DNA of 64,000 nucleotides from a bacterium GBS-1 (GTDB lineage: Bacteria; Synergistota; GBS-1): the NCBI GenBank assembly GCA_001443005.1, contig LEKQ01000001.1, positions 594,542 through 658,541 on the forward strand, in the 5' to 3' direction. Shown one piece after another: positions 5,877 through 28,247 of the stretch (its first letter is position 1; each line of letters opens with the position of its first letter). Below the pieces are notes generated by a model, which saw nothing but the letters and a program-made list of their open reading frames with translations, was not told the origin of the DNA and did not search any database. Both the position numbers and the translations under genes were made by a program.

Positions 5877-5891
5877 AAATCAATCACCTTC

Positions 5892-7775: not shown

Positions 7776-7810
7776 AATTTATCACCCCTTTTAATGGCTT
7801 TAATATCAAA

Positions 7811-8827: not shown

Positions 8828-8839
8828 GTAAAGGCAGTC

Positions 8840-9703
8840 TTAAAGTACCTTCCTTAAGATCTTCGGAATCTCCGATAGCTTAAAGGCTATCTTAGCTCCA
8901 GCATCCTCTAAAACCCTTAGCTTGCTATCCGCACTTCCCGTTTCCCCTTGTATAATGGCCCCAGCATGCCCCATTCTCTTACCCGGCGGAGCCAGTCTAC
9001 CCGCAATGAAGGCTATGACTGGTTTCCTCATGCGCCTTATAACAGCGCTCGCATCCTCCTCACGGCTTCCTCCTATCTCTCCCACGATAACTACAGCCTC
9101 AGTATCGTTATCCCTATCAAACATTTCCAAGATATCAGCTATGTCTACCCCGGTAACTGGATCAGCTCCAATACCCACAACGCTGCTTTCACCGAAACCC
9201 TCATCGTTAAGATATCCAGAGACCTCATAAGAAAGCGTCCCGCTCCTTGAGATGACCCCTACCTTCCCCGGTTTAAACATATTGCCAGGCATTATCCCAA
9301 GCTTACCTACACCGGGAGAGATTACGCCAGGGGTTGTGGGACCAAGCATTACGACGCCCCTCTTCCTCGCAACCTCCCTCATCTCCATGGCATCAGCTAT
9401 GGGAACATGCTCGGGAATAACTACAACAAGCTTTATACCAGCATCTATAGCTTCAAACACAGCATCCTTCGCAGCAAAGGGTGGAGCAAATATAACCGTA
9501 GCATTAACGCCAAACCTCTCTACCGTCTCCTTAACATCATCAAACACTGGAACACCATATACCGTCTCTCCCTTTCTCCCAGGCGTTACTCCTGCCAAGA
9601 TCTTCGTACCATACTCCAACATCCACCTCGTCTGTATGCTTCCCACCCTACCAGTTATACCCTGGACGATAGCCCTGGTCTCATAAGTTAAAAGTATTGC
9701 CAT
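8840..9703 (-). CDS. sucD: Succinyl-CoA synthetase alpha subunit-like (CoA-binding)
   Basis: 287 aa; SucD-type segments IVQGITGRVGS and GPTTPGVISPG; the HAGA motif contains the phosphohistidine. Confidence 0.85.
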   Translation of the reverse strand: MAILLTYETRAIVQGITGRVGSIQTRWMLEYGTKILAGVTPGRKGETVYGVPVFDDVKETVERFGVNATVIFAPPFAAKDAVFEAIDAGIKLVVVIPEHVPIADAMEMREVARKRGVVMLGPTTPGVISPGVGKLGIMPGNMFKPGKVGVISRSGTLSYEVSGYLNDEGFGESSVVGIGADPVTGVDIADILEMFDRDNDTEAVVIVGEIGGSREEDASAVIRRMRKPVIAFIAGRLAPPGKRMGHAGAIIQGETGSADSKLRVLEDAGAKIAFKLSEIPKILRKVL

Positions 9704-9708
9704 AACCT

Positions 9709-10860
9709 TTATCCCCTCTCCTTCTGAGATAAAATCTCCTTAAGCAGATCGATCGCTTTCTCCGTATGGAAAGTTTTTATCAAGTGCACTCCAGCGCTAC
9801 TTAATATCTCCCAGGCCTCTTCCTGTTGATTCCCAACCGCCTTAACCACGATGGGGACATCTTTCGCAAAGCTCTCCCTAGCCTGTTTAACTCCATTAGC
9901 TGCTTCTATAAGGGAGTTCACCCCACCATAAAGATTAATGAGAATTGCCTTTATATTGCCTCTCCTTAAAACGAGCCTTATTGAATCGTTTATGAGCTTA
10001 GCTGTTATTCCACCGCCAGTCTCAAGAAAGTTGGCCGGCCTTAAGCCCTCATCAGCCATCAAATCTACAGTATACATACCCAAGCCCGCACCGCTCGATA
10101 TGAGCCCTATATCTCCATCAAGCACAACATAGGACACACCTATCTCTTTCGCTTCTCTTTCCATATAATCCTCCACGTCGACCTTTTCCAGCTTAGAGAA
10201 ATACTCCTGCCTAAATAAAGCATTATCATCTACTTCTACCTTAGCATCAGCCGCAACGATTCTTCCATCCTTTAAAAGGCATAAAGGATTTATTTCCAAG
10301 ATCGTTAAATCATAGCGAACGAAGGCATCGAACATAGAAGCAGCTATGTGAGAAAGCTTTACCAAAAGCTCCCTCTCAAAGCCCTTTCCCCTCAAAGCTG
10401 ACCTTATCTCATACTCCCTTAAAGCTTCGCTCGGATATTTATCTATTCTCACGAGCCTCTCGGGAAAGAGCTTAACTATCTCCTCTATATCCATGCCACC
10501 GGCATCGCAGAACATGAAGGTACGCTTACCAGATCGCGTATCTATGGTTATCCCCATATATATCTCCCTAGCTATGTCTAAAGCCTCCTCTACAAGGAGC
10601 TTCTTAACTTTAAAACCCCTTATCTCCTTACCAAAAAGCTCAGAAGCAACCTCTTGAGCGGTTTTAGGATCATCCGCAGGCTTAATACCACCCGCCTTAC
10701 CCCTACCACCTATGGGGACCTGTGCCTTAAGCACAACCTTCTTCCCTATCCTCTCGAAAGCGCCGGAAGCTTCCGACGGAGCGCTAATTACTACACCCTC
10801 GGGAACATCTATGCCGATCAGCTTTAAAAAATCCTTCCCCTGATATTCTAAAAGCCTCAT
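9709..10860 (-). CDS. sucC: Succinyl-CoA synthetase beta subunit-like (ATP-grasp)
   Basis: SucC-type N-terminus MRLLEYQGKDFL; track ORF starts 11 codons upstream at 10893, so I trimmed to the internal ATG. Confidence 0.85.
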   Translation of the reverse strand: MRLLEYQGKDFLKLIGIDVPEGVVISAPSEASGAFERIGKKVVLKAQVPIGGRGKAGGIKPADDPKTAQEVASELFGKEIRGFKVKKLLVEEALDIAREIYMGITIDTRSGKRTFMFCDAGGMDIEEIVKLFPERLVRIDKYPSEALREYEIRSALRGKGFERELLVKLSHIAASMFDAFVRYDLTILEINPLCLLKDGRIVAADAKVEVDDNALFRQEYFSKLEKVDVEDYMEREAKEIGVSYVVLDGDIGLISSGAGLGMYTVDLMADEGLRPANFLETGGGITAKLINDSIRLVLRRGNIKAILINLYGGVNSLIEAANGVKQARESFAKDVPIVVKAVGNQQEEAWEILSSAGVHLIKTFHTEKAIDLLKEILSQKERG

Positions 10861-10870
10861 CTCTCTTCCC

Positions 10871-11410
10871 TCACCCTTTCTTGAATATATCAAAGGCAGC
10901 CCTTAAGGCTTTTAAGTTTAAATCCCTAGTAGCAGGAGGTACCCTATTAAGCATGGCAGCCTCGAGCGATTCCCTTTTTACTATTCCTGTTAATGAGACC
11001 AAAACCCCCAAAGCCACTATGTTCGCAGATAAAGGCTTACCTGTCTCCCTTATGGATATCTCTGTTATAGGAAGCTCGTATATCTCAACGTCAGAGCGAG
11101 GTTTGACCTCCTTGATATAAAGTGTATCAATGATGATTAATCCTCCCTCTTTGACGCTCTCACCGTATTTATCCAGCGCATCTTGAGTCATAGCAAGTAA
11201 TATATCTGGTCTTTCGATCTCTGGGTAGTTTATCTCCTCATCGCTTATGATGATCTCGGACCTACTTGCACCACCTCTTGCCTCGGGACCATAGGACTGA
11301 TTATGCGTAGCGTTCTTTCCCTCATAAATCACCGCAGCCTCCGCAAGGATAATCCCTGCGAGAACCAGACCTTGACCACCGTAACCGCTTAACACTATCT
11401 CCTTCCTCAT
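10871..11410 (-). CDS. 2-oxoacid:ferredoxin oxidoreductase gamma subunit
   Basis: 179 aa; POR/KOR/VOR gamma-type GYGGQG motif. Confidence 0.8.
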   Translation of the reverse strand: MRKEIVLSGYGGQGLVLAGIILAEAAVIYEGKNATHNQSYGPEARGGASRSEIIISDEEINYPEIERPDILLAMTQDALDKYGESVKEGGLIIIDTLYIKEVKPRSDVEIYELPITEISIRETGKPLSANIVALGVLVSLTGIVKRESLEAAMLNRVPPATRDLNLKALRAAFDIFKKG

Positions 11411-12235
11411 TTAACCTTCCCCACCTTCAGCTAATTTTCGCCTTAACTCCTCATAAAGCTCCGTATACTCTCTCTTCTCCTTATTAACGAAGAGCTCGCC
11501 TATCAAAAACTTATCCTTCATCTCCTCGAGACTATACCTTTGAGCCTGTTGAACTAAAACAGCATGTTCCTTCTGCCACATCAGCATCTCATAAGGAGTT
11601 CTCATCCTATTTCTTCTCCCATAACCTACAGGACATTGAGAGACAACCTCAATGAAGCTAAAGCCCTTATGAGCGATGGCCTTAGCTATAAGATCAGCCG
11701 TTAACTGAATATGATAAACGGTGCTTCTTGCGATGAAGGTCGCTCCTGCCGCCTCAACAAGCTTGCATATGTCGAAGGATGGTTCAATGTTGCCGTAGGG
11801 AGCTGTTGTAGCATAGGTACCTTGAGGGCTTAAAGGGGAATACTGCCCACCTGTCATACCATATATACTGTTGTTTATAAGTATTGTAGTTATGTCTATG
11901 TTCCTTCTAGCAGCGTGGATCAGATGATTTCCCCCTATCGCCGCACCATCGCCGTCTCCCGTAATAACTATCACCTTCATATCGGGACGCATCAACTTAA
12001 AGCCTGTAGCGAAAGCTAAAGTCCTACCGTGAGTCGTTTGAATGGTGTTAAAGTCCACTATCACGTTGGTCCTTGCCGAACAGCCGATCCCGGTGAAAAG
12101 GACGATTTCATCCTTGCTCAACCCAAGCTTATCAACCGCCATGATCAAAGCCCTCACCACTGAACCGTTACCACAGCCCGGACACCATATATGAGGAAGC
12201 TTGCTTAACCTTAGATACTTCTTTATATCAAGCAT
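11411..12235 (-). CDS. korB: 2-oxoacid:ferredoxin oxidoreductase beta subunit (TPP-binding)
   Basis: CPGCGNG and TGDGD TPP-binding motifs; start trimmed to the internal ATG. Substrate (2-oxoglutarate vs pyruvate vs branched-chain) is not determinable from sequence. Confidence 0.8.
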   Translation of the reverse strand: MLDIKKYLRLSKLPHIWCPGCGNGSVVRALIMAVDKLGLSKDEIVLFTGIGCSARTNVIVDFNTIQTTHGRTLAFATGFKLMRPDMKVIVITGDGDGAAIGGNHLIHAARRNIDITTILINNSIYGMTGGQYSPLSPQGTYATTAPYGNIEPSFDICKLVEAAGATFIARSTVYHIQLTADLIAKAIAHKGFSFIEVVSQCPVGYGRRNRMRTPYEMLMWQKEHAVLVQQAQRYSLEEMKDKFLIGELFVNKEKREYTELYEELRRKLAEGGEG

Positions 12236-13373
12236 GGCTAAACACCTCTTTAATCGCATCAACTATCTCCCAAGGAGATATCATCTTGCCATCAACCCTA
12301 TTAATTCTAACAGCTTTCCTACAAATGCATCTTTCCACCTCTCCTACAAGCTGCCCCATGTTCATCTCAGGCACGACAACAACCTTAGCTCTTTTCGCAT
12401 ACCCCTCTACAACTTCGCCAGGGAAAGGCCAAAGGGTTTGTAACTGCAAAAGCCCAGCTCTTATCCCGCCCTCCCTCAGCATGTTAACTGCATCCTTGGC
12501 AGACCTCGCTGTACACCCATAGGCTACGATAAGCACGTCAGAATCCTCAACCCTATAGGTCTTATAATAAGTTATCTCCTTCCTATAAAACTCTATCTTC
12601 TTGTGAAGTCTCCTTATAAGCTCATTCGCCACCTTATGGTTATATGTTGCTGGGAAGCCCTCCTCATCATGTACATTACTAGTTACGTGATATCTGTACC
12701 CCTTACCGCGATAGGCGAAATCAGGAACACCGTCAGGCCCAGCGGCAAAAGGCTTATATTGCTCAGGCGGCAAGTTAGTAACTCTCCTATTAACTATCCT
12801 TATCCTGCTCGGATCTGGCAAAGTTACCTTCTCCCTTACGTGACCAACCACCGCATCGGAAAGAAGGATCACCGGATTTCTAATGAGCTCAGATATATTA
12901 AAGGCCTCTATAGTTAACTCAAAGGCCTCTTGAACCGTAGCAGGGCATAAGACAACTATAGGATGGTCTCCATGCGTTCCCCACCTCGCCTGCATGACAT
13001 CTCCCTGCGCAGGAAGGGTCGGTAAACCCGTGCTCGGCCCACCCCTTTGCACATCCACTATGACGCAAGGAATGTCAACTATTGTGGCATATCCCAAGTT
13101 CTCCTGCATTAAGGTAAATCCAGGACCACTCGTTGCAGTCATGGCCTTAAAACCAGCCATAGATGCTCCTATAACCGCAGCGATGCTAGCTATCTCATCC
13201 TCCATCTGAATGAATACCCCACCTACCTGAGGCATCCTAAGAGCCATCATCTCGGCTATCTCTGTAGCTGGAGTTATCGGATAACCCGCGAAGAACCTCA
13301 CTCCAGCTAAGATGGCTGCCTCAGCTATAGCCTCATTACCTTGCATGAATCGCACATCCTCCTTAAGGCTCAT
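12228..13373 (-). CDS. korA: 2-oxoacid:ferredoxin oxidoreductase alpha subunit
   Basis: 381 aa; GNEAIAEAAILAGVRFFAGYPITP alpha-subunit N-terminus. Confidence 0.85.
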   Translation of the reverse strand: MSLKEDVRFMQGNEAIAEAAILAGVRFFAGYPITPATEIAEMMALRMPQVGGVFIQMEDEIASIAAVIGASMAGFKAMTATSGPGFTLMQENLGYATIVDIPCVIVDVQRGGPSTGLPTLPAQGDVMQARWGTHGDHPIVVLCPATVQEAFELTIEAFNISELIRNPVILLSDAVVGHVREKVTLPDPSRIRIVNRRVTNLPPEQYKPFAAGPDGVPDFAYRGKGYRYHVTSNVHDEEGFPATYNHKVANELIRRLHKKIEFYRKEITYYKTYRVEDSDVLIVAYGCTARSAKDAVNMLREGGIRAGLLQLQTLWPFPGEVVEGYAKRAKVVVVPEMNMGQLVGEVERCICRKAVRINRVDGKMISPWEIVDAIKEVFSHA

Positions 13374-13597
13374 TCCTCTTCCCCCTCCCGCACCTCAACA
13401 GCATAATCAGGACACCTGAGCTCACAGCTTCTACAACCTACACACATCTCCTCGCGCATAACCCTAACCTTACCATCGCTTGTAAACTCAAAAACCTTCT
13501 TAGGGCAAAACTCTACACATATACCACAAGACTTACACCACTTAGTATTCAGAACAACCTTAAACCTCTTAGTCAAGGCAATCACCCCTTCTTTCAA
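13370..13597 (-). CDS. 2-oxoacid:ferredoxin oxidoreductase delta subunit (2x[4Fe-4S] ferredoxin)
   Basis: 75 aa with two cysteine clusters, CKSCGICVEFCP and CVGCRSCELRCP. Confidence 0.8.
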   Translation of the reverse strand: MKEGVIALTKRFKVVLNTKWCKSCGICVEFCPKKVFEFTSDGKVRVMREEMCVGCRSCELRCPDYAVEVREGEEE

Positions 13598-13896: not shown

Positions 13897-15552
13897 TCAC
13901 TCCAGGGATCTTCTAACCGCTCCCTTTGACGCGCTCTCAACGAAAAGCCTATAATATCTCAGGTAGCTGTTTTCAGGTATAAAGGAGCGATTGACCTCCT
14001 GTACCTCTCCTTTTCTCCTTTTATATTCTTCCTCTGATATCAATAGGTCTACCCTCTTCCTCCCGAGGTCTATCCTTATAACATCACCATCCCTAACTAT
14101 GGAGAGCGGTCCTCCTGCCGCCGCCTCAGGGGAAACATAAGCTATAGAGATGCCGTAAGAAGCCCCGCTAAGCCTGCCATCGGTTATGAGTGCAACGTTC
14201 TTATATCTATTTATTATCTCAACACACCTATGAAGCTCCCTCATGCCCGGACCTCCACAAGGCCCCTCGTATCTTATGATGATAACCTCCCCATCCTTAA
14301 GGTCATTGCTTGATGCATACTCCATAAACTCATCCTCCGAGTTAAATACCCTAGCTACCCCTTCAAAGGGATCCTTCAAAACGTCCACCAGCGCAGACAC
14401 CTTAAGCAGGGCTCCATCAGGAGCAAGGTTTCCTCTCAAGACTTTTATAGCTCCACCCTTAGCTATGGGGTCGGAAACCGATCTTATGATTGACTTCAAA
14501 GGCCTGAATCCCTCACTCTTCCCAATGATATCCCTCCAGGTATCGTTAAGGACCGTCTTTCTATCAAGGTTAAGATAATCCTTTAGTTCTCTTATCAATG
14601 CAACCACTCCGCCAGAAAAATACAGATCTATAACGGTATTCTCGTCGCTATTGGGAGTAACTTGAGCAATCAGGGGAACACTCTCGCTTATCCTCTCAAA
14701 ATCCTCCATGCTTATCTCTATCCTTAGCTCATGAGCTATGGCAGGAATGTGAAGAACAGCGTTTAGAGAACCACCTATAGCCATAACTACAGCTATTGCA
14801 TCCTCAAAAGCTTCCCTCGTCATTATCGCCGAAGGTTTCAAGCCCATCTCTATTAAGCGAACAGCTTGCTCTCCGGTTAATCTAGCTAAGTTATATCTCT
14901 GACTTGTTCCCGCTGGAGTTAAAGCTGACCCTGGCAATCCCACACCCAAAACCTCAGCTACTATACACATGGTATTTGCCGTTCCCAAAAATGGGCAAAC
15001 ACCTGGACCAGGATAATACCTCTCCGTGATGTCAAGCAGCTCATCCTCGGAGACCTTACCCTCAAGAAAGCTCCTTCTCGCCATCTTGGACTCCTTAGGC
15101 TTGATATAGTTGCACATCGGTCCTGCTCCCAACCAAATAGAGGGAAGGTCTATCCTAGCCATAGCCATAAGCATACCAGGGACGATCTTGTCGCAGGAGG
15201 AGAGAAAAACCAAACCATCGAATATATCGTGTCCCTTCACCATAGATTCTATCGAATCAGCGATCAACTCCCTGCTTGGGAGGCTATATTTCATGCCCTT
15301 ATGCCCCTGAGCTATACCATCGCATATAGCTATCGTGTTGAACTCGATTGGAACTCCACCAGCCTTGTAAACCCCTTCTTTTACCTTCTCGGCCAGGTCT
15401 CTTAAAGGGACATGCCCAGGGACTATTTCGTTCCAAGAGTTGACTATACCTACTATGGGCTTGTTAAGATCCGCTCGGGAAAAACCACAAGAAATTAGAT
15501 GCCCCTTTATAAGCTGTCTAACGTAGTTCGGAAAAGCACTCAATCGGTTCAT
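13897..15552 (-). CDS. IlvD/EDD-family dehydratase, paralog 2
   Basis: [30 protein letters not shown] and [11 protein letters not shown] motifs; 551 aa. Confidence 0.85.
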   Translation of the reverse strand: MNRLSAFPNYVRQLIKGHLISCGFSRADLNKPIVGIVNSWNEIVPGHVPLRDLAEKVKEGVYKAGGVPIEFNTIAICDGIAQGHKGMKYSLPSRELIADSIESMVKGHDIFDGLVFLSSCDKIVPGMLMAMARIDLPSIWLGAGPMCNYIKPKESKMARRSFLEGKVSEDELLDITERYYPGPGVCPFLGTANTMCIVAEVLGVGLPGSALTPAGTSQRYNLARLTGEQAVRLIEMGLKPSAIMTREAFEDAIAVVMAIGGSLNAVLHIPAIAHELRIEISMEDFERISESVPLIAQVTPNSDENTVIDLYFSGGVVALIRELKDYLNLDRKTVLNDTWRDIIGKSEGFRPLKSIIRSVSDPIAKGGAIKVLRGNLAPDGALLKVSALVDVLKDPFEGVARVFNSEDEFMEYASSNDLKDGEVIIIRYEGPCGGPGMRELHRCVEIINRYKNVALITDGRLSGASYGISIAYVSPEAAAGGPLSIVRDGDVIRIDLGRKRVDLLISEEEYKRRKGEVQEVNRSFIPENSYLRYYRLFVESASKGAVRRSLE

Positions 15553-15588
15553 TCAAGATCAACTCCCTCCATGAAGCGAAAATGGCTT

Positions 15589-16479
15589 TCATAGCAAACC
15601 AAGCCTCCTTAAGCCCTCTTTTATCTTTTCCCTTACCTCTTCGCTCGCTGGTCTGAAGGGTTCTCTCGGATACATCTTTATCCCGCGTAGGTTAACCATG
15701 GTATAAGCTCCTACGGTAGTGGTATTAGCGAGCCTCATAAGGTCTCTAACGGCCATCACCCTATTGTGAACCTCTATCACCTTATCCTTAGGGGCACCGC
15801 TCATCACCACATCATAAAGCTCCTTACAAAGCTCTGGAAAAGCGTTACCCAACCCTGGAATAAAGGCTTTGATGCCCAAAGAGGACGCAGGAACAAACAG
15901 AGCCTCGGTTCCTAAAACCACATCGAAGCCTTCTTTTTCTACCTTTCTCTTGAAATCCGATAGGACCATCAAATCGAAGCTACTATCCTTAACACCATGC
16001 ACACCTATATCCGCCAACCTCTTAAGCAAGCCCACGCTAACGGCATACCCGACAGTTTTGGGATTGTTATAAACATAAACAGGCACATTAACTGCATCAA
16101 CGATTCTTTTGAAATAAAATAAGACATCCTCCTCGGCATGATGATAGTAGAAAGGAGGAACCGCTGAAACAGCATCAGCACCTATCTCCTCAGCGTGTTT
16201 AGCGAGCTCAACAGCATCCCTCGTGCTTATGCTTCCCACATGAACAATAACCGGGACCCTCCCCCCGACCTCCTTCACAATTATCTCCGCAACCCTCTTT
16301 CTCTCCTCGAGGCTAAGCAAAGGTCCGCAGCCATAGGTCCCAAGGATGAAAAGGCCATCCACCGTCCCTAAAAGGAAGCTCGTAAAATCCCTCAAAGCTC
16401 CCTCATCTATATCGCCGTTTGCATCGAAGGGAACGATCATCGGCGGAATTACCCCTCTCAACTGGGTGATACCCATCAA
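15589..16479 (-). CDS. DapA/NAL-family class I aldolase or dehydratase (dihydrodipicolinate synthase family; 2-keto-3-deoxy-acid aldolase-like)
   Basis: 296 aa; GVIPPMIVPF..DGLFILGTYGCGPLLSLEER layout typical of DHDPS/KDG-aldolase family. Confidence 0.8.
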   Translation of the reverse strand: MMGITQLRGVIPPMIVPFDANGDIDEGALRDFTSFLLGTVDGLFILGTYGCGPLLSLEERKRVAEIIVKEVGGRVPVIVHVGSISTRDAVELAKHAEEIGADAVSAVPPFYYHHAEEDVLFYFKRIVDAVNVPVYVYNNPKTVGYAVSVGLLKRLADIGVHGVKDSSFDLMVLSDFKRKVEKEGFDVVLGTEALFVPASSLGIKAFIPGLGNAFPELCKELYDVVMSGAPKDKVIEVHNRVMAVRDLMRLANTTTVGAYTMVNLRGIKMYPREPFRPASEEVREKIKEGLRRLGLL

Positions 16480-16498
16480 AACACCCCCTTAAGGATCT

Positions 16499-18028
16499 TC
16501 ATCCCATTGTCTCTTGCAACTCGCTAATCTCCCTAAACTCATCCTGCAGCTTATGATAAATCTTCCAATATATCCTATATAACCTCTCGTATAAAACCCT
16601 TAGCCGCTCATCAGGCTCGATGCAATCGACTAACTGGACGGCCTTGGGAAGGATATCCTCATAGCTTTTTATATACCCAACGCCCCTCATGGCCATAACC
16701 GCTGCACCGAAAGAGGAAGCCTCCTCCATATTAACCCTAACTATTGATCTCCCAAGAACGCTTGATAGAACACCCGCCCAAACTTTAGACCTCATCAAAC
16801 CACCGGTTCCCCTAAGCTCTGTAGGGACGCTAACGACCTCTGAGACCGCCTCATATATACTCCTCATTCGAAAGGCTACACCCTCGATTATCGCCCTCGC
16901 TATATGTCTTCTATCATGGTGAAGCGCAAGACCGAACAAAATTCCTCTAACGTCAGCGTTCCAATAGGGGCCTCTCTCGCCGGTTAAAAAGGGCAAAAGC
17001 AAAAGCCCTCCTGCTCCTGGTTTGACCTCCTGAACCCATCTTTCGGCCTCCCTATAGAGGTCTAGGCCCATTTCTTTCAAATCCTCGTAAAAGCCATCGA
17101 TATACCAAGCCATCACAAGCCCAGCGTTGTTTATGGCGCACCCCACAAGCCAGGTATCCTCATCTAATATGTAACACCACGTTCTTCTTTTCTTATCAGT
17201 CATGGGACCCTTAACGGCCATTCTAACCGCACCGCTCGTTCCGATCATTATAGCCATCTTCCCTTCCCCGATTGAGTTGGAACCTAAAGACGATAAAGCA
17301 CCATCTCCAGCACCTATAACGATGGGAGTTCCCTCCCTTAAACTGGTTATGAGGCTAACTTCCTTAGAGACTTTTCCAACAACGGTTGAGGGGTAAACGG
17401 TCTCGCTCATTTTACCAATACTTATATCGAGGCTATCAAATATGGATTCCTCCCATTTTCTCTTATATATGTTAAGTAAACCGCTACCAGAGGCCACAGA
17501 GATATCGATGGCGAAGACCTTCGCTAAATTCCAAAGAACATACTCCTTTATGGTCATTATCCTATAAGCTTCATCAAGAGCTTGAGGGGTTTCATGCTTA
17601 AACCATATGAGCTTGGCGAGAGGATAGTTCACATGGAGGGGGCAACCTGTAATATCGTAAAGGTAATCAAACCTCTCTCGATAGCTCTTAAGCAGATCGT
17701 TAGACCTATTATCCCCCCAGATAATGAGATTGGTCTTTTTCCTCACATCAGAATCCACTAACATTATGCTGTGAAAAACGCTACTTAAACCTATGGCACC
17801 TATCTCATACTCACCGTTGGCAAGCTCCAAGGATTCCTTTATCGAGCTATATACAGCGGAGACAACCTCGTCAGGATCCTGCTCCACCCAACCAGGCTTA
17901 GGTTGAATAATCCTATAGTTTCTCTTAGCCATCGATATTAATCTTCCATCGCCATCGAAGATACAACATCTCGCCCCGGTTGTTCCTATATCAATACCTA
18001 TGAAAGCCGTCTTAGCCATCATAAACAC
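16499..18028 (-). CDS. FGGY-family carbohydrate kinase
   Basis: N-terminal FIGIDIGTTGARCC and two-domain FGGY layout; about 505 aa. Confidence 0.8.
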   Translation of the reverse strand: MFMMAKTAFIGIDIGTTGARCCIFDGDGRLISMAKRNYRIIQPKPGWVEQDPDEVVSAVYSSIKESLELANGEYEIGAIGLSSVFHSIMLVDSDVRKKTNLIIWGDNRSNDLLKSYRERFDYLYDITGCPLHVNYPLAKLIWFKHETPQALDEAYRIMTIKEYVLWNLAKVFAIDISVASGSGLLNIYKRKWEESIFDSLDISIGKMSETVYPSTVVGKVSKEVSLITSLREGTPIVIGAGDGALSSLGSNSIGEGKMAIMIGTSGAVRMAVKGPMTDKKRRTWCYILDEDTWLVGCAINNAGLVMAWYIDGFYEDLKEMGLDLYREAERWVQEVKPGAGGLLLLPFLTGERGPYWNADVRGILFGLALHHDRRHIARAIIEGVAFRMRSIYEAVSEVVSVPTELRGTGGLMRSKVWAGVLSSVLGRSIVRVNMEEASSFGAAVMAMRGVGYIKSYEDILPKAVQLVDCIEPDERLRVLYERLYRIYWKIYHKLQDEFREISELQETMG

Positions 18029-18043
18029 CTCAAGCTTTAAGAA

Positions 18044-18802
18044 TCAAACTGCCGTCCAGCCTCCGTCCACGAAGATTATCTGACCTGTGATATAAGAAGC
18101 CTCCTTAGAGGCCAAAAAAACCGCAACCCCTTTAAGGTCCTCCAAAGATCCAAACCTACCCAAGGGTATCCTTTTTATCATGCTTTCAAGCCTTTCTCTA
18201 TCGCTGAAGACCGCCTCGGTCATCCTGGTCTTGTACCATCCTGGCGCAATAGCGTTCACCCTTATGCCATACGCCCCCCACTCCTTAGCGAGCGCCTTAG
18301 TTAATGAGCCAACACCGCCCTTTGAAGCAGCATAGGCACATATGTTAGGAACGGTCACCTCAACCACGGTCAAGGAGCAAACGTTGATTATTGAGGGGGA
18401 ATCTGACCTCCTCAGTAATCTAAAAGCCTCCCTACACACGTAAAAGGTCCCAAAGAGATTAACCTCGATTATCTCCCTAAAATCATCGATTGGAAACTCC
18501 TCAGCGGGATACCTCCTATTGATGCCTGCAGCGTTCACAACGACATCAAGCCTACCATAGTTTCTCTCAATATTATCCATTATATTCTTCACTTCATCGT
18601 ATTTCGAGACATCGCATCTTAAGCCCGAAGCTTTAACACCATAGCCTTGACTTATCCTTAGGGCAGTCTCCTTTGCCTCCTCTATGGTCCTGCTAACTAT
18701 CAATACATCGCTTCCCGCCTCGGCGAGCCCCTCAGCGAGAGCCATACCTAATCCCCTTGACCCGCCAGTTACAAGAGAGAGCCTTCCTCTAAGGTTAAAC
18801 AT
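18044..18802 (-). CDS. SDR-family oxidoreductase (KduD/gluconate 5-dehydrogenase-like)
   Basis: TGGSRGLG cofactor motif and YAASKGG catalytic motif. Confidence 0.85.
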   Translation of the reverse strand: MFNLRGRLSLVTGGSRGLGMALAEGLAEAGSDVLIVSRTIEEAKETALRISQGYGVKASGLRCDVSKYDEVKNIMDNIERNYGRLDVVVNAAGINRRYPAEEFPIDDFREIIEVNLFGTFYVCREAFRLLRRSDSPSIINVCSLTVVEVTVPNICAYAASKGGVGSLTKALAKEWGAYGIRVNAIAPGWYKTRMTEAVFSDRERLESMIKRIPLGRFGSLEDLKGVAVFLASKEASYITGQIIFVDGGWTAV

Positions 18803-20276
18803 TTGCCCCCGTTATCCTCCTTCTCCCAAGAATCATTAGCACTATCAATACCCAAAGAATTATACAAATAGGCCTAGTAAAGAAAGGAGTTATGCTTTCA
18901 TTTAACGTCAAAGCCCTTCTTAGGTTCTCATCAGCCATCCTACCCAAAATCAACCCCAGGGTAAATGGAGCGAGAGGATAGCCGTGATTTCTCAGTACGT
19001 AACCTACTAAACCGAAAAGCAAGGTTACGTAGACGTCAAAAATGGAGTGATTCACAGCGTAGGCACCTATAACGCAGAGAGTTATTACTATAGGCATTAA
19101 GATGTCCTTCTTCACCAGCAACACCTTTATAAGTACGTTGCTTATAAGAAGCCCAAAGATAAGAAGCATAAAGTTAGCCAAAACCTGCATAGCAACGTAA
19201 TCATAGAAAAATTGCGGGGACTCAATGAAGATAAGCGGACCTGGCCTTATCCCGTGCAACAATATGCCTCCCAATAAAACGGCAGCAGCTCCGCTACCAG
19301 GTATGCCAAGAGCTATCATCGGAATCGAAGCTCCACCTATGCATGCGTTATTCGCTACCTCACAAGCGATAACCCCTTCCTTGCTCCCCTTACCTATCAT
19401 CTCCCTTTCCACACCGAGATTTTTGACAGCACCATAGCTTACCCAAGCGGCCACATCTTCACCAACGCCAGGAATAACACCGATCAGAATACCTATTATC
19501 GCAGACCTTATGGTCGTCTTCCAGTATCTAAAAACCTCTACTAAGGGAATACTAACCCTGAGCTTCTTAGGATCAACCACTAACTCCCCCTGTTTCGGCT
19601 CCCTCATCACGCAAAAAACCTCGGTTAAACCGAAAAGGCCTATCAAGGCAGGTATCAGAGATATGCCACTCATCAAATTTAGGCTGCCGAAGGTGAACCT
19701 TGGATAGGTGGTCATGTTATCCATACCTATCATAGCGGTCATAAGACCGAGAAAGCCCGTTATCCACCCCTTTAATTGCAACTCACCCATAGACAAGCTT
19801 CCACATATCATCACTCCCATTATGGTCAAAACGAAGAACTCCCAGGAACCAAACTTCAGGGCTATCTTAGCAAGCAAAGGGGTAGAAACAGCCAAGGCTA
19901 AGACGCCTATTAAACCACCCCAGAAGGAAGCTAAACGAGCAAGCCCTAAAGCTTCCCCAGCCATCCCATTCTTAGCTAATTCGTATCCATCTATAGCGGT
20001 AGCTGCAGCTGAAGGGGTACCAGGGATGTTAAGCAAAATGGCACTATTGGATCCTCCATATATACCACCGCAATAGAGAGCTACGAGCATCGGTATGGCA
20101 TATCGAGGGTCCAGACCATAGGTTATACCACTTAAGAGGGCTATACCCATCGTAGCTGTAAGACCAGGTAAAGCCCCGATTATTACCCCAAGGACAGAAG
20201 ATAGTGACATCAAAGATAGCAGCTTTAAGTCAAGAAGACCAACGAAACCATCAAAAAGCCTTAATAAGCTTTCCAC
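18795..20276 (-). CDS. tctA: Tripartite tricarboxylate transporter large permease TctA (copy 1)
   Basis: 493 aa polytopic membrane protein with the GALPGLTATMGIALL motif. Confidence 0.85.
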   Translation of the reverse strand: MESLLRLFDGFVGLLDLKLLSLMSLSSVLGVIIGALPGLTATMGIALLSGITYGLDPRYAIPMLVALYCGGIYGGSNSAILLNIPGTPSAAATAIDGYELAKNGMAGEALGLARLASFWGGLIGVLALAVSTPLLAKIALKFGSWEFFVLTIMGVMICGSLSMGELQLKGWITGFLGLMTAMIGMDNMTTYPRFTFGSLNLMSGISLIPALIGLFGLTEVFCVMREPKQGELVVDPKKLRVSIPLVEVFRYWKTTIRSAIIGILIGVIPGVGEDVAAWVSYGAVKNLGVEREMIGKGSKEGVIACEVANNACIGGASIPMIALGIPGSGAAAVLLGGILLHGIRPGPLIFIESPQFFYDYVAMQVLANFMLLIFGLLISNVLIKVLLVKKDILMPIVITLCVIGAYAVNHSIFDVYVTLLFGLVGYVLRNHGYPLAPFTLGLILGRMADENLRRALTLNESITPFFTRPICIILWVLIVLMILGRRRITGANV

Positions 20277-20300: not shown

Positions 20301-20783
20301 TTAGGGCAACCTCACTCCAAGTAAATGTCCAAATGAGTACATCAAGCTCAAACTCACCAAAAGAGCGATCCCGATCGCGACGTGTAGCTTGACACTTTTA
20401 AAGTAAAGATAGGACCCAACTAGATAGAGAAAAGTCGCCAAAGTATAGGGTATCTTCCCCAAAAGAGCAACATAGGCGACCGTTAAAGCTATAAAGACGA
20501 CGAGCCTTTGTGTCTTGAGTCTCTCCTCCCTGCTTCCCTCATTTCTCCCCTTTGACTCCGAGAGGCTCCAACCTTTAAGGTTTCTTTTAAAGATAAACAA
20601 GAGGTAAAACATAAGCGCAGCTGAAAGAACCATAAGAATTGCCGATAAAACTGCGGGGGTAAGACCTGGGGAGTCATGAGGGTCTCCAGTAGGCATCTTT
20701 AGGGATTCAAACAAGCCATAAGCACCGATCAGGAAAACGAAAAGGGCAATCGCAAACTCCCACCACCATCTCTTCCTATCCAT
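20301..20783 (-). CDS. tctB: Tripartite tricarboxylate transporter small subunit TctB (copy 1)
   Basis: 160 aa, four hydrophobic segments, sits between tctC and tctA. Confidence 0.6.
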   Translation of the reverse strand: MDRKRWWWEFAIALFVFLIGAYGLFESLKMPTGDPHDSPGLTPAVLSAILMVLSAALMFYLLFIFKRNLKGWSLSESKGRNEGSREERLKTQRLVVFIALTVAYVALLGKIPYTLATFLYLVGSYLYFKSVKLHVAIGIALLVSLSLMYSFGHLLGVRLP

Positions 20784-20869: not shown

Positions 20870-21877
20870 TTACTCCGGCTTAGGAATCTTGAAATCCTCA
20901 GGAGATTTCTTCGCAAGCTTCAACTCATGTAAGAGCCAGCTAACCAAAGATGTCTCTCTCTTAGCGTACTCCTCAGACTTCTGCCTATCATAGCCAAGAT
21001 AAACCATGGCCTGCTTCTGTACGAACTCCTTGAACTTAGGAGACTGAACGGCCTTAGCGTATGCCTTATCTATCGCATCTACAACCTCTTGAGGAACATC
21101 CCTAGGAACTGCTATGCCCCACCAACCACCGAAAGGTAGATATTTCTTAATATCAGGAGCCCACTTCGCCACAGTGGGAACCTTACCTACGCCCTCTATC
21201 TCAATATCCTCGTCATTGAACGTCGCAAGGATCCTAAGCTGGCCACCCTTTATCAAATCTATGGCCTCCATTAAGCCTGGAATTCCCGCTTTCGTCTCCC
21301 CTGCCACAGCCGCGGCAGCAGCCGCACGACCGCTGGGATAAACCACTATCTTAAAGTCCCCTCCAACAGATTTCTTAAGCATCTCCAAAGCTATATGCCA
21401 CCCGTTGGCTATACCAGAGTTAGCAAGGGTTAAGTCCTTCCCCATCTCCTTCATAGCCTTAATGAAATCATCCATGGTCTTTATGGGAGAATCGGGCTTA
21501 ACGCATATGGTCGCTACACCAGCAGCAGCGATCCACATATGAAAGTCCTTATAAGAGAAGGGACCAAGGTCCATCACCTGATACATCCTTATGTTATCTG
21601 AGAGTCCTAACCAAATATAACCATCATGAGGCTGACCCATGACGTAAGCTGTCGCAACAGCTCCAGTGGCCCCAGGCATATTTATGACATTAATAGGAAC
21701 CCCTAGGATCTGCTGCATCTCTGCCGCCAATGCTCTATTGACCTGGTCTGTTGCTCCACCCGCACCGAACTGAACTATAACGGTTATAGGTCTCGTTGGA
21801 TAGGCAGCCCATCCCATACCTGCGAAGACACCCACGAACAAGCCCAACACCGCCAACATAACAAGAGCCTTCTTCAT
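20870..21877 (-). CDS. tctC: Tripartite tricarboxylate transporter substrate-binding protein TctC (Bug family; copy 1)
   Basis: Signal peptide followed by AAYPTRPITVIVQFGAGGATD Bug-family motif. Confidence 0.85.
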   Translation of the reverse strand: MKKALVMLAVLGLFVGVFAGMGWAAYPTRPITVIVQFGAGGATDQVNRALAAEMQQILGVPINVINMPGATGAVATAYVMGQPHDGYIWLGLSDNIRMYQVMDLGPFSYKDFHMWIAAAGVATICVKPDSPIKTMDDFIKAMKEMGKDLTLANSGIANGWHIALEMLKKSVGGDFKIVVYPSGRAAAAAAVAGETKAGIPGLMEAIDLIKGGQLRILATFNDEDIEIEGVGKVPTVAKWAPDIKKYLPFGGWWGIAVPRDVPQEVVDAIDKAYAKAVQSPKFKEFVQKQAMVYLGYDRQKSEEYAKRETSLVSWLLHELKLAKKSPEDFKIPKPE

Positions 21878-21954: not shown

Positions 21955-23109
21955 TTACATGGCAGATCTGCATATCTGGATCAGATCTTCCAAGGTAGGA
22001 GTTCTCGGATTAATGGGTATCCCAACGTTACTCATCGCCTCACGACATATATCTTCAATGGCATCCTCTTTGACGCCTACCTCTCTTAGCCCTGCCGGTA
22101 TACCCACATCTCTACACAAAGCCTTTACCGCCTCAACCGCCCTACGTGCAGCCTGAAGCTCCGTAAGACCGGAAACGCTCTCTCCCAACGCTTCAGCTAT
22201 CTTAGCAAACTTAGAAAGGTTGCCAATGAGATTAAACTCCATACCATAGGGTAATAGGATAGCGTTTATCACACCATGAGGCACGTCGAAGTACCCACCC
22301 ATAACAGCTGTGATAGCGTGAATAACGCCCAAGCGCGTATTTGCGAAAGCCAAGGCTGCCATCGTGCTTCCTAAGAGCATGTTATAGCGAGCTTCAATAT
22401 TATCCCCCTTAGCATAGGCAGCCCTCAGATACTTTCCAATAAGATAGATAGCGTGATAGGCAAGCGACTCCGATATAGGCTCAGTTACAACGTTCGTGAA
22501 GGACTCTATAGCGTGAGTTAGAGCATCTAAACCAGTAGCAGCGGTCACGCTTGGCGGCATACTCAAGGTTAGAAGGGGGTCGCAAACCGCAATGTGAGGA
22601 GCGATCTTAGGATTACCTATGCCCATCTTAACTTTCTTCTTGGTATCCTTTATCACCGTCACCCAAGTTATCTCGCTACCTGTGCCAGCCGTAGTAGGAA
22701 CGGCAATGAGAGGAAGTATCCTGTTCTTCGGAGGGTTCTTCCAAAAGTAGGCTATCTCCCCCTCGTTAGTTAAAAGTAGACCGATCGCCTTAGCGGTGTC
22801 TATCGAGCTTCCTCCCCCAATCGCCAATAGGAGATCACACCCAAACTCCCGAGCAACTTTAACTCCCTCCTCGACTATCTCAACCGTCGGATTAGGCTCA
22901 ACTTTAGAGAAAACCTCAGTTCTAAAGCCAGCAATATCCAACTTGGCCTTTATGCCATTTACGATGTTCGTGCACATCAATCCCGGATCCGTAACTATTA
23001 AGACGCTCTTTCCGCCCAGTTCGTTAACCCTGTCTACTATTTTTTCGGCCTCTCCTATCCCAAAATACAACTTAGTCGGAATCTGCCAAACGAAGGGCTT
23101 AACAAACAT
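21955..23109 (-). CDS. Iron-containing alcohol dehydrogenase (Fe-ADH family)
   Basis: 384 aa; GGGSSIDTAKAIG motif and Fe-ADH layout. Confidence 0.85.
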   Translation of the reverse strand: MFVKPFVWQIPTKLYFGIGEAEKIVDRVNELGGKSVLIVTDPGLMCTNIVNGIKAKLDIAGFRTEVFSKVEPNPTVEIVEEGVKVAREFGCDLLLAIGGGSSIDTAKAIGLLLTNEGEIAYFWKNPPKNRILPLIAVPTTAGTGSEITWVTVIKDTKKKVKMGIGNPKIAPHIAVCDPLLTLSMPPSVTAATGLDALTHAIESFTNVVTEPISESLAYHAIYLIGKYLRAAYAKGDNIEARYNMLLGSTMAALAFANTRLGVIHAITAVMGGYFDVPHGVINAILLPYGMEFNLIGNLSKFAKIAEALGESVSGLTELQAARRAVEAVKALCRDVGIPAGLREVGVKEDAIEDICREAMSNVGIPINPRTPTLEDLIQICRSAM

Positions 23110-23325: not shown

Positions 23326-24795
23326 TTAGTCCTTTAATTTACGCACCACCTTCCAAATAGATGGTCCTAAAAGGGTTAAAACTATAAGAGAAAACAAGAT
23401 TAAAGATATGGGACGGGTTAGGAAAGGGATAATGCTACCACCTGACTTTATAAGCCCTATACGGAGATTGTCCTCGATCATCCTACCAAGGATTAGAGCT
23501 AAAACCATTGGAGCAAGAGGCATGTTTATTTTCTCCATAACGTAGCCGAGTAAGCCAAACAGCGCCATTAGCCATATATCGAAGACGCTGTTTCTTATGG
23601 CGTAGGAGCCTACCATGGAAAACAGAACCACAGCACTCATAACTACACCTGCTCTAAGGCTAACCAAGCGAGAAAAGGCCTTTATCCCCAGCCACCCAAC
23701 CGGTAAAAGCATTATCTGCACCAGCAGGGCTACAGCGAAAATCTGATATACCAAATCCTTAGATTGAGCGAAGATGAGCGGTCCAGGCTTCAAGCCATAC
23801 ATCAGCATAGCGCCTAGGACTATCGCAGTTATAGAATCGCCAGGTATCCCCAGTGCCAGTGCAGGGATCCAAGTTCCACCTATAGCAGCATTATTCGCAC
23901 TGGTTGGAGCTATAACGCCACGGGGGCTACCGGAACCTATCTCATTACCACTAAGGCTTTTTTCCGCTCCATAGGCAACCCATGCAGCGATGTCCGCCCC
24001 CGCTCCAGGAAGAGCACCTATGAAAGTCCCTATCAAAGAGCTCCTTATTATAATGAACTTATTGCGATACATAAGCTTTAAAGCCTCAAGCACATCCAAC
24101 TTCCCATTGATTTTAACGCTTGGTAAGTCCAAGCTCTCCCTAAAGGACAATCTCTTCAATACCTCGGAAATTCCAAAAAGTCCTATCATAGCTGGGATAA
24201 AGCTAACACCATCCATCAGCTCCGTGATCCCAAAGGTAAACCTGGGATATCCCGTGGTGACATCTATACCTATGGTAGATATGAGAAGCCCAAACAAGGC
24301 TGAAAGAAGCCCCTTGATGGTATTACCTCTACTTAAAACGGCAGCCATGCTTAAACCAAAGACCCCCAACCAGAAATACTCGAAGTGCGTGAACTTCAAG
24401 GCTACCTCAGCTAACGGGGGAGCAGTGAAGATCAATATCAAAACCCCTATCAATCCTCCAAGAGCAGAACAGAAGAGATCCAAAGTTAAGGCTAAAGCTC
24501 CTTTACCCTTCTTATTCATCTCAAAGCCATCTAAAACCGCTGCCCCAGAGGCTGGCGTACCCGGAATCCTTAAGAAGGTCGCGGGAATATCGCCTGCAAA
24601 TATGGCGGTGAAGGAAACACCTATAACCATAGCCAAACCCGTTAGGGGCTCCATGTAATAGGTCAATGGTATTATGAGAGCTACGGCCATCGTAGCCGTA
24701 AGGCCAGGCATAGCGCCCACGAAAACGCCAAAGGCCATTGAAAGCAAAAGCGGAAAAAGAACCTTTAAGGAAAGGATGGATAAAAGATAAGACAT
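23326..24795 (-). CDS. tctA: Tripartite tricarboxylate transporter large permease TctA (copy 2)
   Basis: 489 aa; GAMPGLTATMAVALI motif; paralog of copy 1. Confidence 0.85.
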   Translation of the reverse strand: MSYLLSILSLKVLFPLLLSMAFGVFVGAMPGLTATMAVALIIPLTYYMEPLTGLAMVIGVSFTAIFAGDIPATFLRIPGTPASGAAVLDGFEMNKKGKGALALTLDLFCSALGGLIGVLILIFTAPPLAEVALKFTHFEYFWLGVFGLSMAAVLSRGNTIKGLLSALFGLLISTIGIDVTTGYPRFTFGITELMDGVSFIPAMIGLFGISEVLKRLSFRESLDLPSVKINGKLDVLEALKLMYRNKFIIIRSSLIGTFIGALPGAGADIAAWVAYGAEKSLSGNEIGSGSPRGVIAPTSANNAAIGGTWIPALALGIPGDSITAIVLGAMLMYGLKPGPLIFAQSKDLVYQIFAVALLVQIMLLPVGWLGIKAFSRLVSLRAGVVMSAVVLFSMVGSYAIRNSVFDIWLMALFGLLGYVMEKINMPLAPMVLALILGRMIEDNLRIGLIKSGGSIIPFLTRPISLILFSLIVLTLLGPSIWKVVRKLKD

Positions 24796-24802
24796 CTACA
24801 CT

Positions 24803-25294
24803 CTACCCCCTTAAGAGTGAAAATATAACTCCCTCAGGTAAGGGTAGCTTAAATATAACCTTGAAAATCCAATGGATTAACAAAGCCAAGACTACAGAAT
24901 AAACTAGAGATGAAAACCACCTAACTCTCATAAATCGCATTAGGAAAACTCCCAAGAGCGTTATACCAATCACGCTTCCGAAAATCTTCAGAACCGGGTA
25001 AAAGAGAAACCCCACACCTATGATAATTACGAAGCTCAAGCTTTTATATAAGCTGACGCCTTTAAATAGCGATGATCTCAATTCCTCCCTCGCTTTAAAT
25101 AGAGAGGTCAAACCAGATACAAAAAAGTAAAAACCAAAGATCAAGATCAAAAAAGCTAAGAGATCCGGGAAAAAGCTCGGTCCAGGCAACTTTTCCCCTC
25201 TTACCGTAAACTTCGGGAAAAACCTGGAATGGTAAAAAACGAAGCCTGATAAAGCGAAACAGCTCAAACTCAATATAAGGTCACTCCACCCCAT
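24803..25294 (-). CDS. tctB: Tripartite tricarboxylate transporter small subunit TctB (copy 2)
   Basis: 163 aa hydrophobic protein in the tctCBA position. Confidence 0.6.
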   Translation of the reverse strand: MGWSDLILSLSCFALSGFVFYHSRFFPKFTVRGEKLPGPSFFPDLLAFLILIFGFYFFVSGLTSLFKAREELRSSLFKGVSLYKSLSFVIIIGVGFLFYPVLKIFGSVIGITLLGVFLMRFMRVRWFSSLVYSVVLALLIHWIFKVIFKLPLPEGVIFSLLRG

Positions 25295-25320
25295 TTAGCC
25301 ACAATCCCCCTTTAAAGGCG

Positions 25321-25350
25321 GGGCAAGCTCGTGGGAACGAGCTTGCCCCA
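25321..25350 (-). promoter_or_regulatory. Intercistronic stem-loop between tctC and tctB (copy 2): perfect 12-bp inverted repeat, 6-nt loop
   Basis: GGGGCAAGCTCG-tgggaa-CGAGCTTGCCCC; same position and architecture as copy 1. Confidence 0.5.
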
Positions 25351-25362
25351 AAGAGAATACCT

Positions 25363-26337: not shown

Positions 26338-26350
26338 TTTGAAACCCCCT

Positions 26351-28232: not shown

Positions 28233-28247
28233 ACTATCCTCCCTCCC

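Follow-up and report, generated by a model that had tools for sequence, protein, structure and literature searches.

Which route of sugar-acid catabolism is encoded by a compact set of four genes in the Synergistota bacterium GBS-1? The genes lie in a stretch of 64,000 nucleotides (assembly GCA_001443005.1, contig LEKQ01000001.1, positions 594,542 to 658,541), referred to here as the window. They encode an IlvD/EDD dehydratase, a DHDPS-family class I aldolase, an FGGY kinase and a short-chain dehydrogenase/reductase (SDR). An initial annotation described them as a sub-cluster resembling a non-phosphorylative Entner-Doudoroff (ED) route. A check of the open reading frames (ORFs) and Pfam searches recovered the same four genes, all on the minus strand and with the same domains. 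The classification as a sugar-acid catabolic unit of the ED type agrees with the presence of a dehydratase, a class I aldolase, a sugar-acid SDR and a kinase. The term non-phosphorylative does not survive the analysis. Functional statements in this report are based on homology and gene context, and on this basis the route very probably runs via the kinase and KDPG (2-keto-3-deoxy-6-phosphogluconate), in whichever order phosphorylation and dehydration take place. We consider it probable, with less confidence, that the genes form a kinase-dependent ED-type operon, assembled from non-orthologous enzymes, for the breakdown of a sugar acid that is imported and derives from a hexose, and that the kinase acts first. 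The unit belongs to a hot-spring anaerobe, and identical proteins are found on long contigs from the 77 C Great Boiling Spring metagenomes.

The dehydratase is a member of the IlvD/EDD superfamily. It has both domains of the family, three Cys ligands of the cluster, the Mg ligands (Asp, carbamylated Lys and Glu) and the Ser base. The motifs C77-D78-G, C120-D121-K122, C186, S462 in DGRLSG and P475-E476-A align with those of Escherichia coli IlvD, Edd, and YagF. The protein falls below the cutoff of each specific family model that was compared: 581.5 bits on the ilvD model TIGR00110 (cutoff 618.15), 312.9 on the Edd model TIGR01196 (708.25), and, among pentonate dehydratases, 233.7 on the YjhG/YagF model (808) and 376.4 on the L-arabinonate dehydratase model (882). 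It is 34% identical to E. coli Edd and is placed outside the Edd branch in a neighbour-joining tree. No ilv genes are present among its neighbours in the window. An alignment with 80 dihydroxy-acid dehydratases (DHADs) revealed 21 positions that set apart the group of proteins to which it belongs, referred to here as the ELHR clade. These residues include K16, H18, K156, R159, Y180, H441, R442, and Y472. By alignment, the basic residues K16, H18, K156, R159, H441, and R442 map to the N-terminal substrate-recognition helix and the helix-loop-helix lid that have been described for structures of the family. R159, Y180, H441, and K/R442 are common to the ELHR clade and E. coli Edd, and R159, H441, and K/R442 are not found in the 80 DHADs. 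Judged by these comparisons, the clade of the dehydratase is separate from both DHAD and Edd, and the protein may function like Edd without being a member of that family. Its proposed product is KDPG or 2-keto-3-deoxygluconate (KDG), formed from (6-phospho)gluconate or mannonate. The suggestion of the initial annotation that this protein is not a biosynthetic IlvD is borne out by the score below the ilvD cutoff and by the clade residues at the 21 positions.

The aldolase belongs to the DHDPS/NAL class I aldolase superfamily and conserves the equivalents of DapA K161, Y133, and Y107, which are the Schiff-base Lys and the Tyr pair. It has a Thr in place of Arg138, the residue of DapA that binds aspartate semialdehyde, and GTYGC instead of GTTGE. 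Its scores are below the cutoffs of the models for DapA (150.7 bits, cutoff 206.15), archaeal KD(P)G aldolase (NF040954; 149.8, cutoff 390), NanA (156.2, cutoff 281), and KdgD (77.7, cutoff 374), and no other NCBIfam equivalog model gave a score above its cutoff. The protein falls in a large clade of its own, whose members are found at 50-56% identity and directly adjoin 2-keto-3-deoxygalactonate kinases of the DGOK family. We propose that it acts as a 2-keto-3-deoxy-(6-phospho)gluconate aldolase that replaces Eda.

Over 251 residues the SDR shares 71% identity (409 bits) with TM0441/UxaD of Thermotoga maritima (PDB 1vl8), and it belongs to the UxaD type. On the NCBIfam gluconate 5-dehydrogenase subfamily model it scores 250, below the cutoff of 279. 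TM0441/UxaD is a fructuronate reductase that is annotated as gluconate 5-dehydrogenase. TM0441 is uxaD of the UxaR regulon and is accompanied there by gntE and gntK, in a route that takes hexuronates via mannonate and then gluconate to 6-phosphogluconate (PMC3750489, PMC6978723). The ortholog-level match to UxaD identifies the SDR as a predicted keto-hexonate reductase. Its identity to TM0441 is far above the cross-phylum identities of the neighbouring proteins, which suggests lateral transfer among thermophiles.

The FGGY kinase has its best NCBIfam match to gntK_FGGY (TIGR01314) at 388.8 bits, below the cutoff of 648.55, and its best PDB match is the gluconate kinase 3gbt. All of its named homologues are called gluconokinase. 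The nearest homologue from an isolate (57% identity) is that of Pseudothermotoga thermarum, where the gene is part of a 2HADH-TRAP-SDR-FGGY module without a dehydratase or an aldolase (2HADH, D-2-hydroxyacid dehydrogenase). Because this locus encodes no dehydratase, the P. thermarum kinase does not have a locally made dehydratase product as substrate. The proposed function of the FGGY enzyme of GBS-1 is that of a gluconate or mannonate 6-kinase, and the alternative is a KDG kinase. In extracts of Lactobacillus suebicus, mannonate is phosphorylated prior to epimerisation. The core unit needs no epimerase, because mannonate and gluconate, or their 6-phosphates, are dehydrated to the same 2-keto-3-deoxy product.

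The nearest named relatives of these proteins are found in metagenome-assembled genomes of Synergistota (dehydratase 72%, kinase 66-69% identity). The locus with the 72% identical dehydratase, L004, retains the whole block in the same order: an iron-type alcohol dehydrogenase (Fe-ADH), the three genes of a tripartite tricarboxylate-type (TTT) transporter (TctCBA), SDR, FGGY, DHDPS, and dehydratase, followed by a ThiS-like protein, a ferredoxin, KorABG, SucCD, 2HADH, aldehyde:ferredoxin oxidoreductase (AFOR), a split SAF/GD_AH dehydratase, and Ldh_2. A second relative, L092, has a dehydratase of 66% identity and the arrangement IclR-Eda-TctCBA-SDR-FGGY-dehydratase-2HADH-FeADH-AFOR. Its aldolase is Eda of the canonical KDPG aldolase family (PF01081), which takes the place of the DHDPS-type gene and leaves the TctCBA-SDR-FGGY-dehydratase module unchanged. 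The replacement affects a single slot and is non-orthologous. Since Eda fills that slot in L092, the DHDPS-type protein is expected to be an aldolase that acts on a 2-keto-3-deoxy sugar acid phosphate. Firmicute homologues of the dehydratase at 53-56% identity occur in four arrangements. These are RpiR, dehydratase, 2HADH, FGGY, TRAP, LarA, and Eda in Calderihabitans; dehydratase, LarA, FGGY, and Eda in Thermosinus; LacI, PfkB, MFS, dehydratase, 2HADH, and Eda in Paenibacillus; and RpiR, FGGY, dehydratase, 2HADH, SDR, a zinc-type alcohol dehydrogenase (Zn-ADH), and Eda in Thermanaerosceptrum. Combinations of dehydratase, kinase, and aldolase are found again in Firmicutes, as they are in metagenomes. 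The recurrence of the order or the module in the 72% and 66% relatives, in Firmicutes, and in metagenomes argues against chance as the origin of this gene order.

The extent of the dehydratase clade was surveyed in two scans. A scan of a genome collection with the universally conserved peptides of the clade alignment recovered only true IlvD loci (39-47% identity), which were reused as a DHAD outgroup. A DNA pattern for GGPGM[RK]E[LM]HR, a peptide specific to the clade, was then used to scan metagenomes. BLAST comparison with reference proteins, together with clustering, served to annotate the resulting 120 loci, and a neighbour-joining tree resolved three dehydratase subclades. The partners of subclade 1 are DHDPS-type aldolases and DGOK kinases. 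Subclade 2 includes the window protein and is linked to gluconokinase-like FGGY kinases, GntP, LarA, 2HADH, RpiR regulators with a SIS domain, and Gnd. Subclade 3 is large, comes mostly from gut samples, and is sister to the FGGY-linked subclade 2. Its recurrent operon encodes IIA, Eda, IIA, IIB, IIC (EIIC-GAT), the dehydratase, and DUF5714. A phosphotransferase system (PTS) of the Gat family is present in 42 of the 62 subclade 3 loci and is joined by Eda in 23 of them, and a recognisable kinase is present in none (0/62). Eda needs a phosphorylated substrate and the PTS is the only candidate source of phosphate in these operons; the subclade 3 dehydratase is therefore most simply placed on a phospho-aldonate.

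The gut operon was seen at L100, L113, L132, L142, L164, L204, and about 40 more metagenome loci. Its composition suggests PTS-coupled uptake of an aldonate that feeds directly into an ED-type dehydratase and aldolase, and a description of such a PTS-Eda-dehydratase operon was not found in searches of the full-text literature. Separately, aldolases of the window clade are paired with DGOK kinases and IlvD/EDD dehydratases at L094 (8001-9919), L095 (8001-9916), L108, L154, L167, L168, and L190. Two of these loci, L154 and L168, have two such aldolases each, along with both FGGY and DGOK kinases. The dehydratase-DHDPS-DGOK sets look like a triad of the DeLey-Doudoroff type in which a class I aldolase of the DHDPS fold replaces DgoA. 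The residues of the ELHR clade were also tried as a discriminator between enzymes for phosphorylated and for free-acid substrates. This attempt failed, as the basic residues are present in all three subclades. Because the DGOK-linked subclade has them too, they do not decide whether kinase or dehydratase acts first.

In the pathway that we consider probable, TctCBA would import a keto-hexonate or a hexuronate-derived acid such as fructuronate or 5-ketogluconate, and the SDR, as an ortholog of UxaD, would convert it to D-mannonate or D-gluconate. The gluconokinase-like FGGY enzyme would phosphorylate C6, the IlvD-like dehydratase would remove water to give KDPG, and the DHDPS-type class I aldolase would cleave KDPG to yield pyruvate plus glyceraldehyde-3-phosphate. 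The domain identities, the catalytic residues that are kept, the recurrence of the module, and the exchange with Eda are direct observations; the substrate, the placing of the kinase before the dehydratase, and the roles given below to Fe-ADH, 2HADH, and AFOR are inferred. The kinase-first order is favoured because of the Eda swap, the DGOK neighbours of the aldolase clade, the UxaD-like SDR, the gluconokinase-like FGGY enzyme, and the sister subclade with PTS and Eda. It is also supported by the co-occurrence of Gnd and RpiR, by the basic residues shared with Edd, and by the Thermanaerosceptrum operon, which mirrors idn plus edd-eda.

Several observations weigh against this order, and they coincide in part with those that favour its serious rival, a semi-phosphorylative order. 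In that scheme the IlvD-like enzyme would form KDG by dehydrating gluconate or mannonate as the free acid, the FGGY enzyme would be a KDG kinase of a new type, and the DHDPS-type aldolase would again cleave KDPG. The dehydratase is overall nearer to DHADs (381 bits to the Mycobacterium tuberculosis DHAD) than to Edd (248 bits), and the scheme draws on this closeness to DHADs and aldonate dehydratases. DHADs are described as accepting gluconate, and none is known to accept 6-phosphogluconate. The subclade of dehydratase-DHDPS-DGOK triads implies dehydration before phosphorylation at those loci, yet it has the same basic residues. A gluconate dehydratase plus KdgK route is used by Clostridia and Blautia, and for Clostridium and Blautia the full set with Eda has been either reported or predicted. 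The PfkB of the Paenibacillus locus resembles a KDG kinase, an assignment that is not separable from 2-ketogluconate kinase. To these are added the score of the FGGY kinase, which is under the gluconokinase equivalog cutoff, and the fact that a uronate isomerase was not found within the window. The semi-phosphorylative scheme in turn has to accommodate a kinase whose nearest relatives are gluconokinases and which stands with an SDR, and no dehydratase, in P. thermarum. Loci of the subclade that includes the window protein contain Gnd, the sister subclade combines PTS and Eda with no kinase, and we know of no KDG kinase of the FGGY family. We regard dehydration before phosphorylation as rather unlikely on this evidence.

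A fully non-phosphorylative route is considerably less likely. It would split KDG into pyruvate and glyceraldehyde, pass the aldehyde to AFOR or Fe-ADH, and leave the kinase to a C3 product or to a parallel gluconate branch. Archaeal KD(P)G aldolases of the DHDPS family cleave unphosphorylated KDG as well, and the window aldolase scores about equally on the archaeal KDG aldolase model and on the NanA and DapA models. AFOR, Fe-ADH, and 2HADH are repeatedly found beside such clusters. However, L092 keeps AFOR and Fe-ADH while its aldolase is swapped for Eda, kinases are consistent companions of the aldolase clade, and the unit has a kinase inside it and no glycerate kinase. The FGGY enzyme itself scores 203 bits on the glycerol kinase model and 389 on that of gluconokinase. 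With the DGOK genes beside aldolase homologues and the PTS and Eda of the sister subclade, these are the grounds on which we set aside that part of the initial annotation. The genes downstream raise two further schemes. One is a Weimberg or aldarate type of pathway, in which the DHDPS protein would be KdgD or a 2-keto-3-deoxy-L-arabinonate (L-KDA) dehydratase that forms 2-oxoglutarate semialdehyde, AFOR would yield 2-oxoglutarate, and KorABG and SucCD would conserve energy as ATP. The 2-oxoacid:ferredoxin oxidoreductase, succinyl-CoA synthetase, AFOR, and split GarD/UxaA-like dehydratase that it calls for do lie downstream, in a block that is kept in L004. This pathway is very unlikely, as the KdgD model gives only 78 bits against 374, Eda substitutes for the DHDPS protein in L092 with no Kor or SucCD within that 14-kb contig, and the kinases with which the aldolase clade pairs would be without a role. 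The other scheme, a route resembling the sulfo-ED pathway, is fainter still. The dehydratase would act on 6-deoxy-6-sulfogluconate, and the downstream genes would process sulfolactaldehyde and sulfolactate. The best match of Ldh_2 is L-sulfolactate dehydrogenase (329 bits, below the cutoff of 500), a ComB-like phosphatase follows, the split SAF and GD_AH pair presumably resembles SuyAB, and a distal anion of any kind could be bound by the basic residues of the lid. Against this, the surroundings lack a sulfoquinovosidase and a sulfoquinovose dehydrogenase/lactonase, the SDR is orthologous to UxaD, a sulfonated substrate needs no kinase, and the relatives have PTS, GntP, Gnd, and Eda.

A close parallel to the kinase-first reading is the GntII/idn system of E. 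coli combined with the classical ED pathway (IdnD, IdnO, IdnK, Edd, and Eda). The logic is the same: SDR reduction of a keto-aldonate, phosphorylation of the aldonate, dehydration by an [Fe-S] enzyme of the IlvD/EDD family, and aldol cleavage to pyruvate and glyceraldehyde-3-phosphate. In gene content, the Thermanaerosceptrum operon (RpiR-FGGY-dehydratase-2HADH-SDR-ZnADH-Eda) is a counterpart of E. coli idnD-idnO-idnK together with edd-eda. The window differs in that its dehydratase is not an ortholog of Edd, its aldolase is of the DHDPS type and not Eda, its kinase is FGGY and not the P-loop GntK/IdnK, and uptake is by a TTT system. The UxaR-regulon route of T. maritima (uxaE-uxaD-gntE-gntK-gnd) shares the 71% identical SDR followed by a gluconokinase-like FGGY kinase, whereas the core unit of the window lacks a LarA-type GntE and Gnd, and its product would pass to a dehydratase and an aldolase and not to 6-phosphogluconate dehydrogenase. 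The semi-phosphorylative and branched ED pathways of Sulfolobus and Thermoproteus also employ a class I DHDPS/NAL aldolase for 2-keto-3-deoxy-(phospho)gluconate, with an AFOR-type enzyme nearby, and the absence of the Glu of the GxxGE motif is a further point in common. The window aldolase is not an ortholog of theirs (150 bits, cutoff 390), and the archaeal gluconate dehydratase (enolase superfamily) and KDG kinase (PfkB type) are unlike those of the window. E. coli YagE/YagF and YjhH/YjhG, of the Dahms-type xylonate route, show the same pairing of an IlvD/EDD dehydratase with a DHDPS-family aldolase. The window dehydratase is 27-28% identical to YagF and YjhG, its aldolase falls in another clade than YagE and YjhH, and the Dahms-type route has no kinase. 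The gluconate dehydratase (GAD) operon of clostridia and Blautia, which encodes gluconate dehydratase, KdgK, and Eda, is likewise an anaerobic gluconate route with a non-Edd dehydratase annotated as IlvD-type, but its KDG kinase is PfkB and its aldolase Eda. The chemistry of the window is conventional and is that of known ED variants. What is new is the set of enzymes in one operon, namely a DHAD-like dehydratase clade, a DHDPS-type aldolase clade, an FGGY kinase, and a TTT transporter.

The genes of the unit and of its surroundings are listed in Table 1. The minus strand carries every long ORF across 349-29096. GC skew of the plus strand is strongly negative (about -0.2 to -0.3), and nearly all genes in 1-33300 of the window lie on a single strand. 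TctCBA and Fe-ADH are located upstream of the SDR-FGGY-DHDPS-dehydratase genes. Intergenic distances range from an 8-nt overlap, which is that of TctA and the SDR start, up to a 36-nt gap. This tight packing fits one transcript that continues from TctCBA. In a scan for consensus promoters and terminators, the number of sites did not exceed that of shuffled sequence. No transcriptional regulator genes were seen in 349-29096, whereas relatives have IclR or RpiR beside the module.

Table 1. Features of the window at and around the ED-type unit.
Feature	Position	Strand	Basis
Second IlvD/EDD paralog, DHAD-type	349-2094	-	TIGR00110 775 bits
GD_AH part of split dehydratase	4414-5571	-	
SAF part of split dehydratase	5568-5876	-	
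AFOR, aldehyde:ferredoxin oxidoreductase	5892-7775	-	Pfam AFOR
2HADH, D-2-hydroxyacid dehydrogenase	7811-8827	-	Pfam
Small 2x[4Fe-4S] ferredoxin	13370-13576		
ThiS/MoaD-like ORF, 66 residues	13603-13803	-	C-terminal Gly-Gly
IlvD/EDD dehydratase	13897-15552	-	Pfam ILVD_EDD_N 1.6e-116, ILV_EDD_C 5.9e-59
DHDPS-family class I aldolase	15589-16479	-	Pfam DHDPS 5.8e-55
FGGY kinase	16499-18028	-	Pfam FGGY_N 9.6e-55, FGGY_C 1.1e-29
SDR	18044-18802	-	Pfam adh_short_C2 3.5e-65
TctA, large membrane subunit of the tripartite tricarboxylate-type transporter	18795-20276	-	Pfam TctA 4.5e-142
TctB, small membrane subunit	20301-20783	-	Pfam TctB
TctC, substrate-binding protein	20870-21877	-	Pfam TctC 7.7e-26
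Fe-ADH, iron-type alcohol dehydrogenase	21955-23109	-	Pfam Fe-ADH
Second TctCBA set with its two neighbours	23326-29096	-	
UPF0261 protein	26994-28232	-	
PEP-hydrolase-like protein	28248-29096	-	

The proposed role of TctCBA is uptake of the sugar acid, and TctA is kept with the module in both L004 and L092. The block shared with L004 begins with the Fe-ADH gene, which also adjoins the module in L092, and the Zn-ADH of Thermanaerosceptrum occupies a comparable place. Fe-ADH could be a dehydrogenase of the aldonate/idonate type or an aldehyde reductase. The 2HADH gene is directly beside the dehydratase gene in L007, L009, L092, L095, L222, and many metagenome loci, and its product may be a 2-keto-aldonate reductase. 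AFOR adjoins the module in L092 and a DHDPS-DGOK cluster in L094. Its assignment as a glyceraldehyde-3-phosphate:ferredoxin oxidoreductase (GAPOR) was considered and rejected (44.7 bits, cutoff 1300). The recurrence of AFOR, Fe-ADH, and 2HADH as partners leaves room for a side branch. A second TctCBA set is found beside a UPF0261 protein and a phosphoenolpyruvate (PEP)-hydrolase-like protein. In Thermanaerosceptrum fracticalcis (L222, 14325-18385), a UPF0261/PEP-hydrolase pair and a sigma-54 regulator with a PEP-hydrolase domain stand beside the homologous sugar-acid operon.

The other end of the block holds the second IlvD/EDD paralog, which was noted in the initial annotation and is 46% identical to the dehydratase of the unit. 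The existence of two paralogs had been taken to make it unlikely that either is a biosynthetic IlvD. This is a weak argument; its conclusion is supported for the dehydratase of the unit but may not hold for the paralog, which scores above the ilvD cutoff (TIGR00110, 775 against 618), clusters with E. coli IlvD in the neighbour-joining tree, and has a median identity of 50% to 79 DHADs. At the 21 discriminating positions it has the DHAD consensus in 10 and the clade residue in 2. The gene is not beside ilvBNC, and its neighbours are LarA-like, Ldh_2, and ComB-like genes. By these comparisons it is of the DHAD type, lies outside the ED-type unit, and may be a true DHAD/IlvD. With its listed TTG start, the paralog extends 48 nt into the end of the LarA-like gene (2046-2094). 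The true start is probably further downstream, because family models match only from about residue 30.

From the unit through the paralog, and onward in L010, extends a conserved block (349-13373, minus strand) with KorA/B/G, SucC/D, 2HADH, AFOR, a split dehydratase of the SuyAB/GarD type, Ldh_2, a LarA-like racemase, the DHAD-type IlvD, and the ComB-like phosphatase. The best match of the LarA-like protein is malate racemase, and both this match and that of Ldh_2 to L-sulfolactate dehydrogenase are below cutoff. The small ferredoxin gene precedes KorABG, and the ThiS/MoaD-like ORF, which would encode a sulfur-carrier-like protein and is kept in L004, lies between it and the dehydratase gene. 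The downstream block may encode an anaerobic route for a hydroxy-dicarboxylate, an aldarate, or sulfolactate.

We tentatively raise a broader possibility, which we hold with less confidence than the kinase-first pathway itself: the ELHR clade might be a second, independent lineage of 6-phospho-aldonate dehydratases that stands in for Edd. Combined with an FGGY kinase and a KDPG aldolase of the DHDPS type, it would form a full phosphorylative ED pathway without the textbook orthologs in thermophilic Synergistota-like bacteria, and in gut Firmicutes it would be fed directly by a Gat-family PTS. If so, the names that routine annotation gives to two clades are wrong, dihydroxy-acid dehydratase for the dehydratases, which are widespread, and dihydrodipicolinate synthase family protein for the aldolases, and whole sugar-acid pathways would be missed in thermophilic anaerobes and gut bacteria. 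Pathways of the ELHR type would escape annotation and could account for genomes that are reported with an incomplete ED pathway. The genome note of a cultured thermophilic member of the Synergistota describes ED, Embden-Meyerhof-Parnas (EMP), and pentose phosphate pathways that appear incomplete although sugars are fermented, and a relative uses gluconate. An unrecognised ED variant could contribute to this picture in Synergistota. In the gut, the use of gluconate by commensals has been linked to the exclusion of Enterobacteriaceae. The finding also bears on the question, at present disputed, of whether any DHAD-like enzyme can use 6-phosphogluconate as a substrate, and the enzymes of the window would be defined, thermostable candidates for a direct test of that question.

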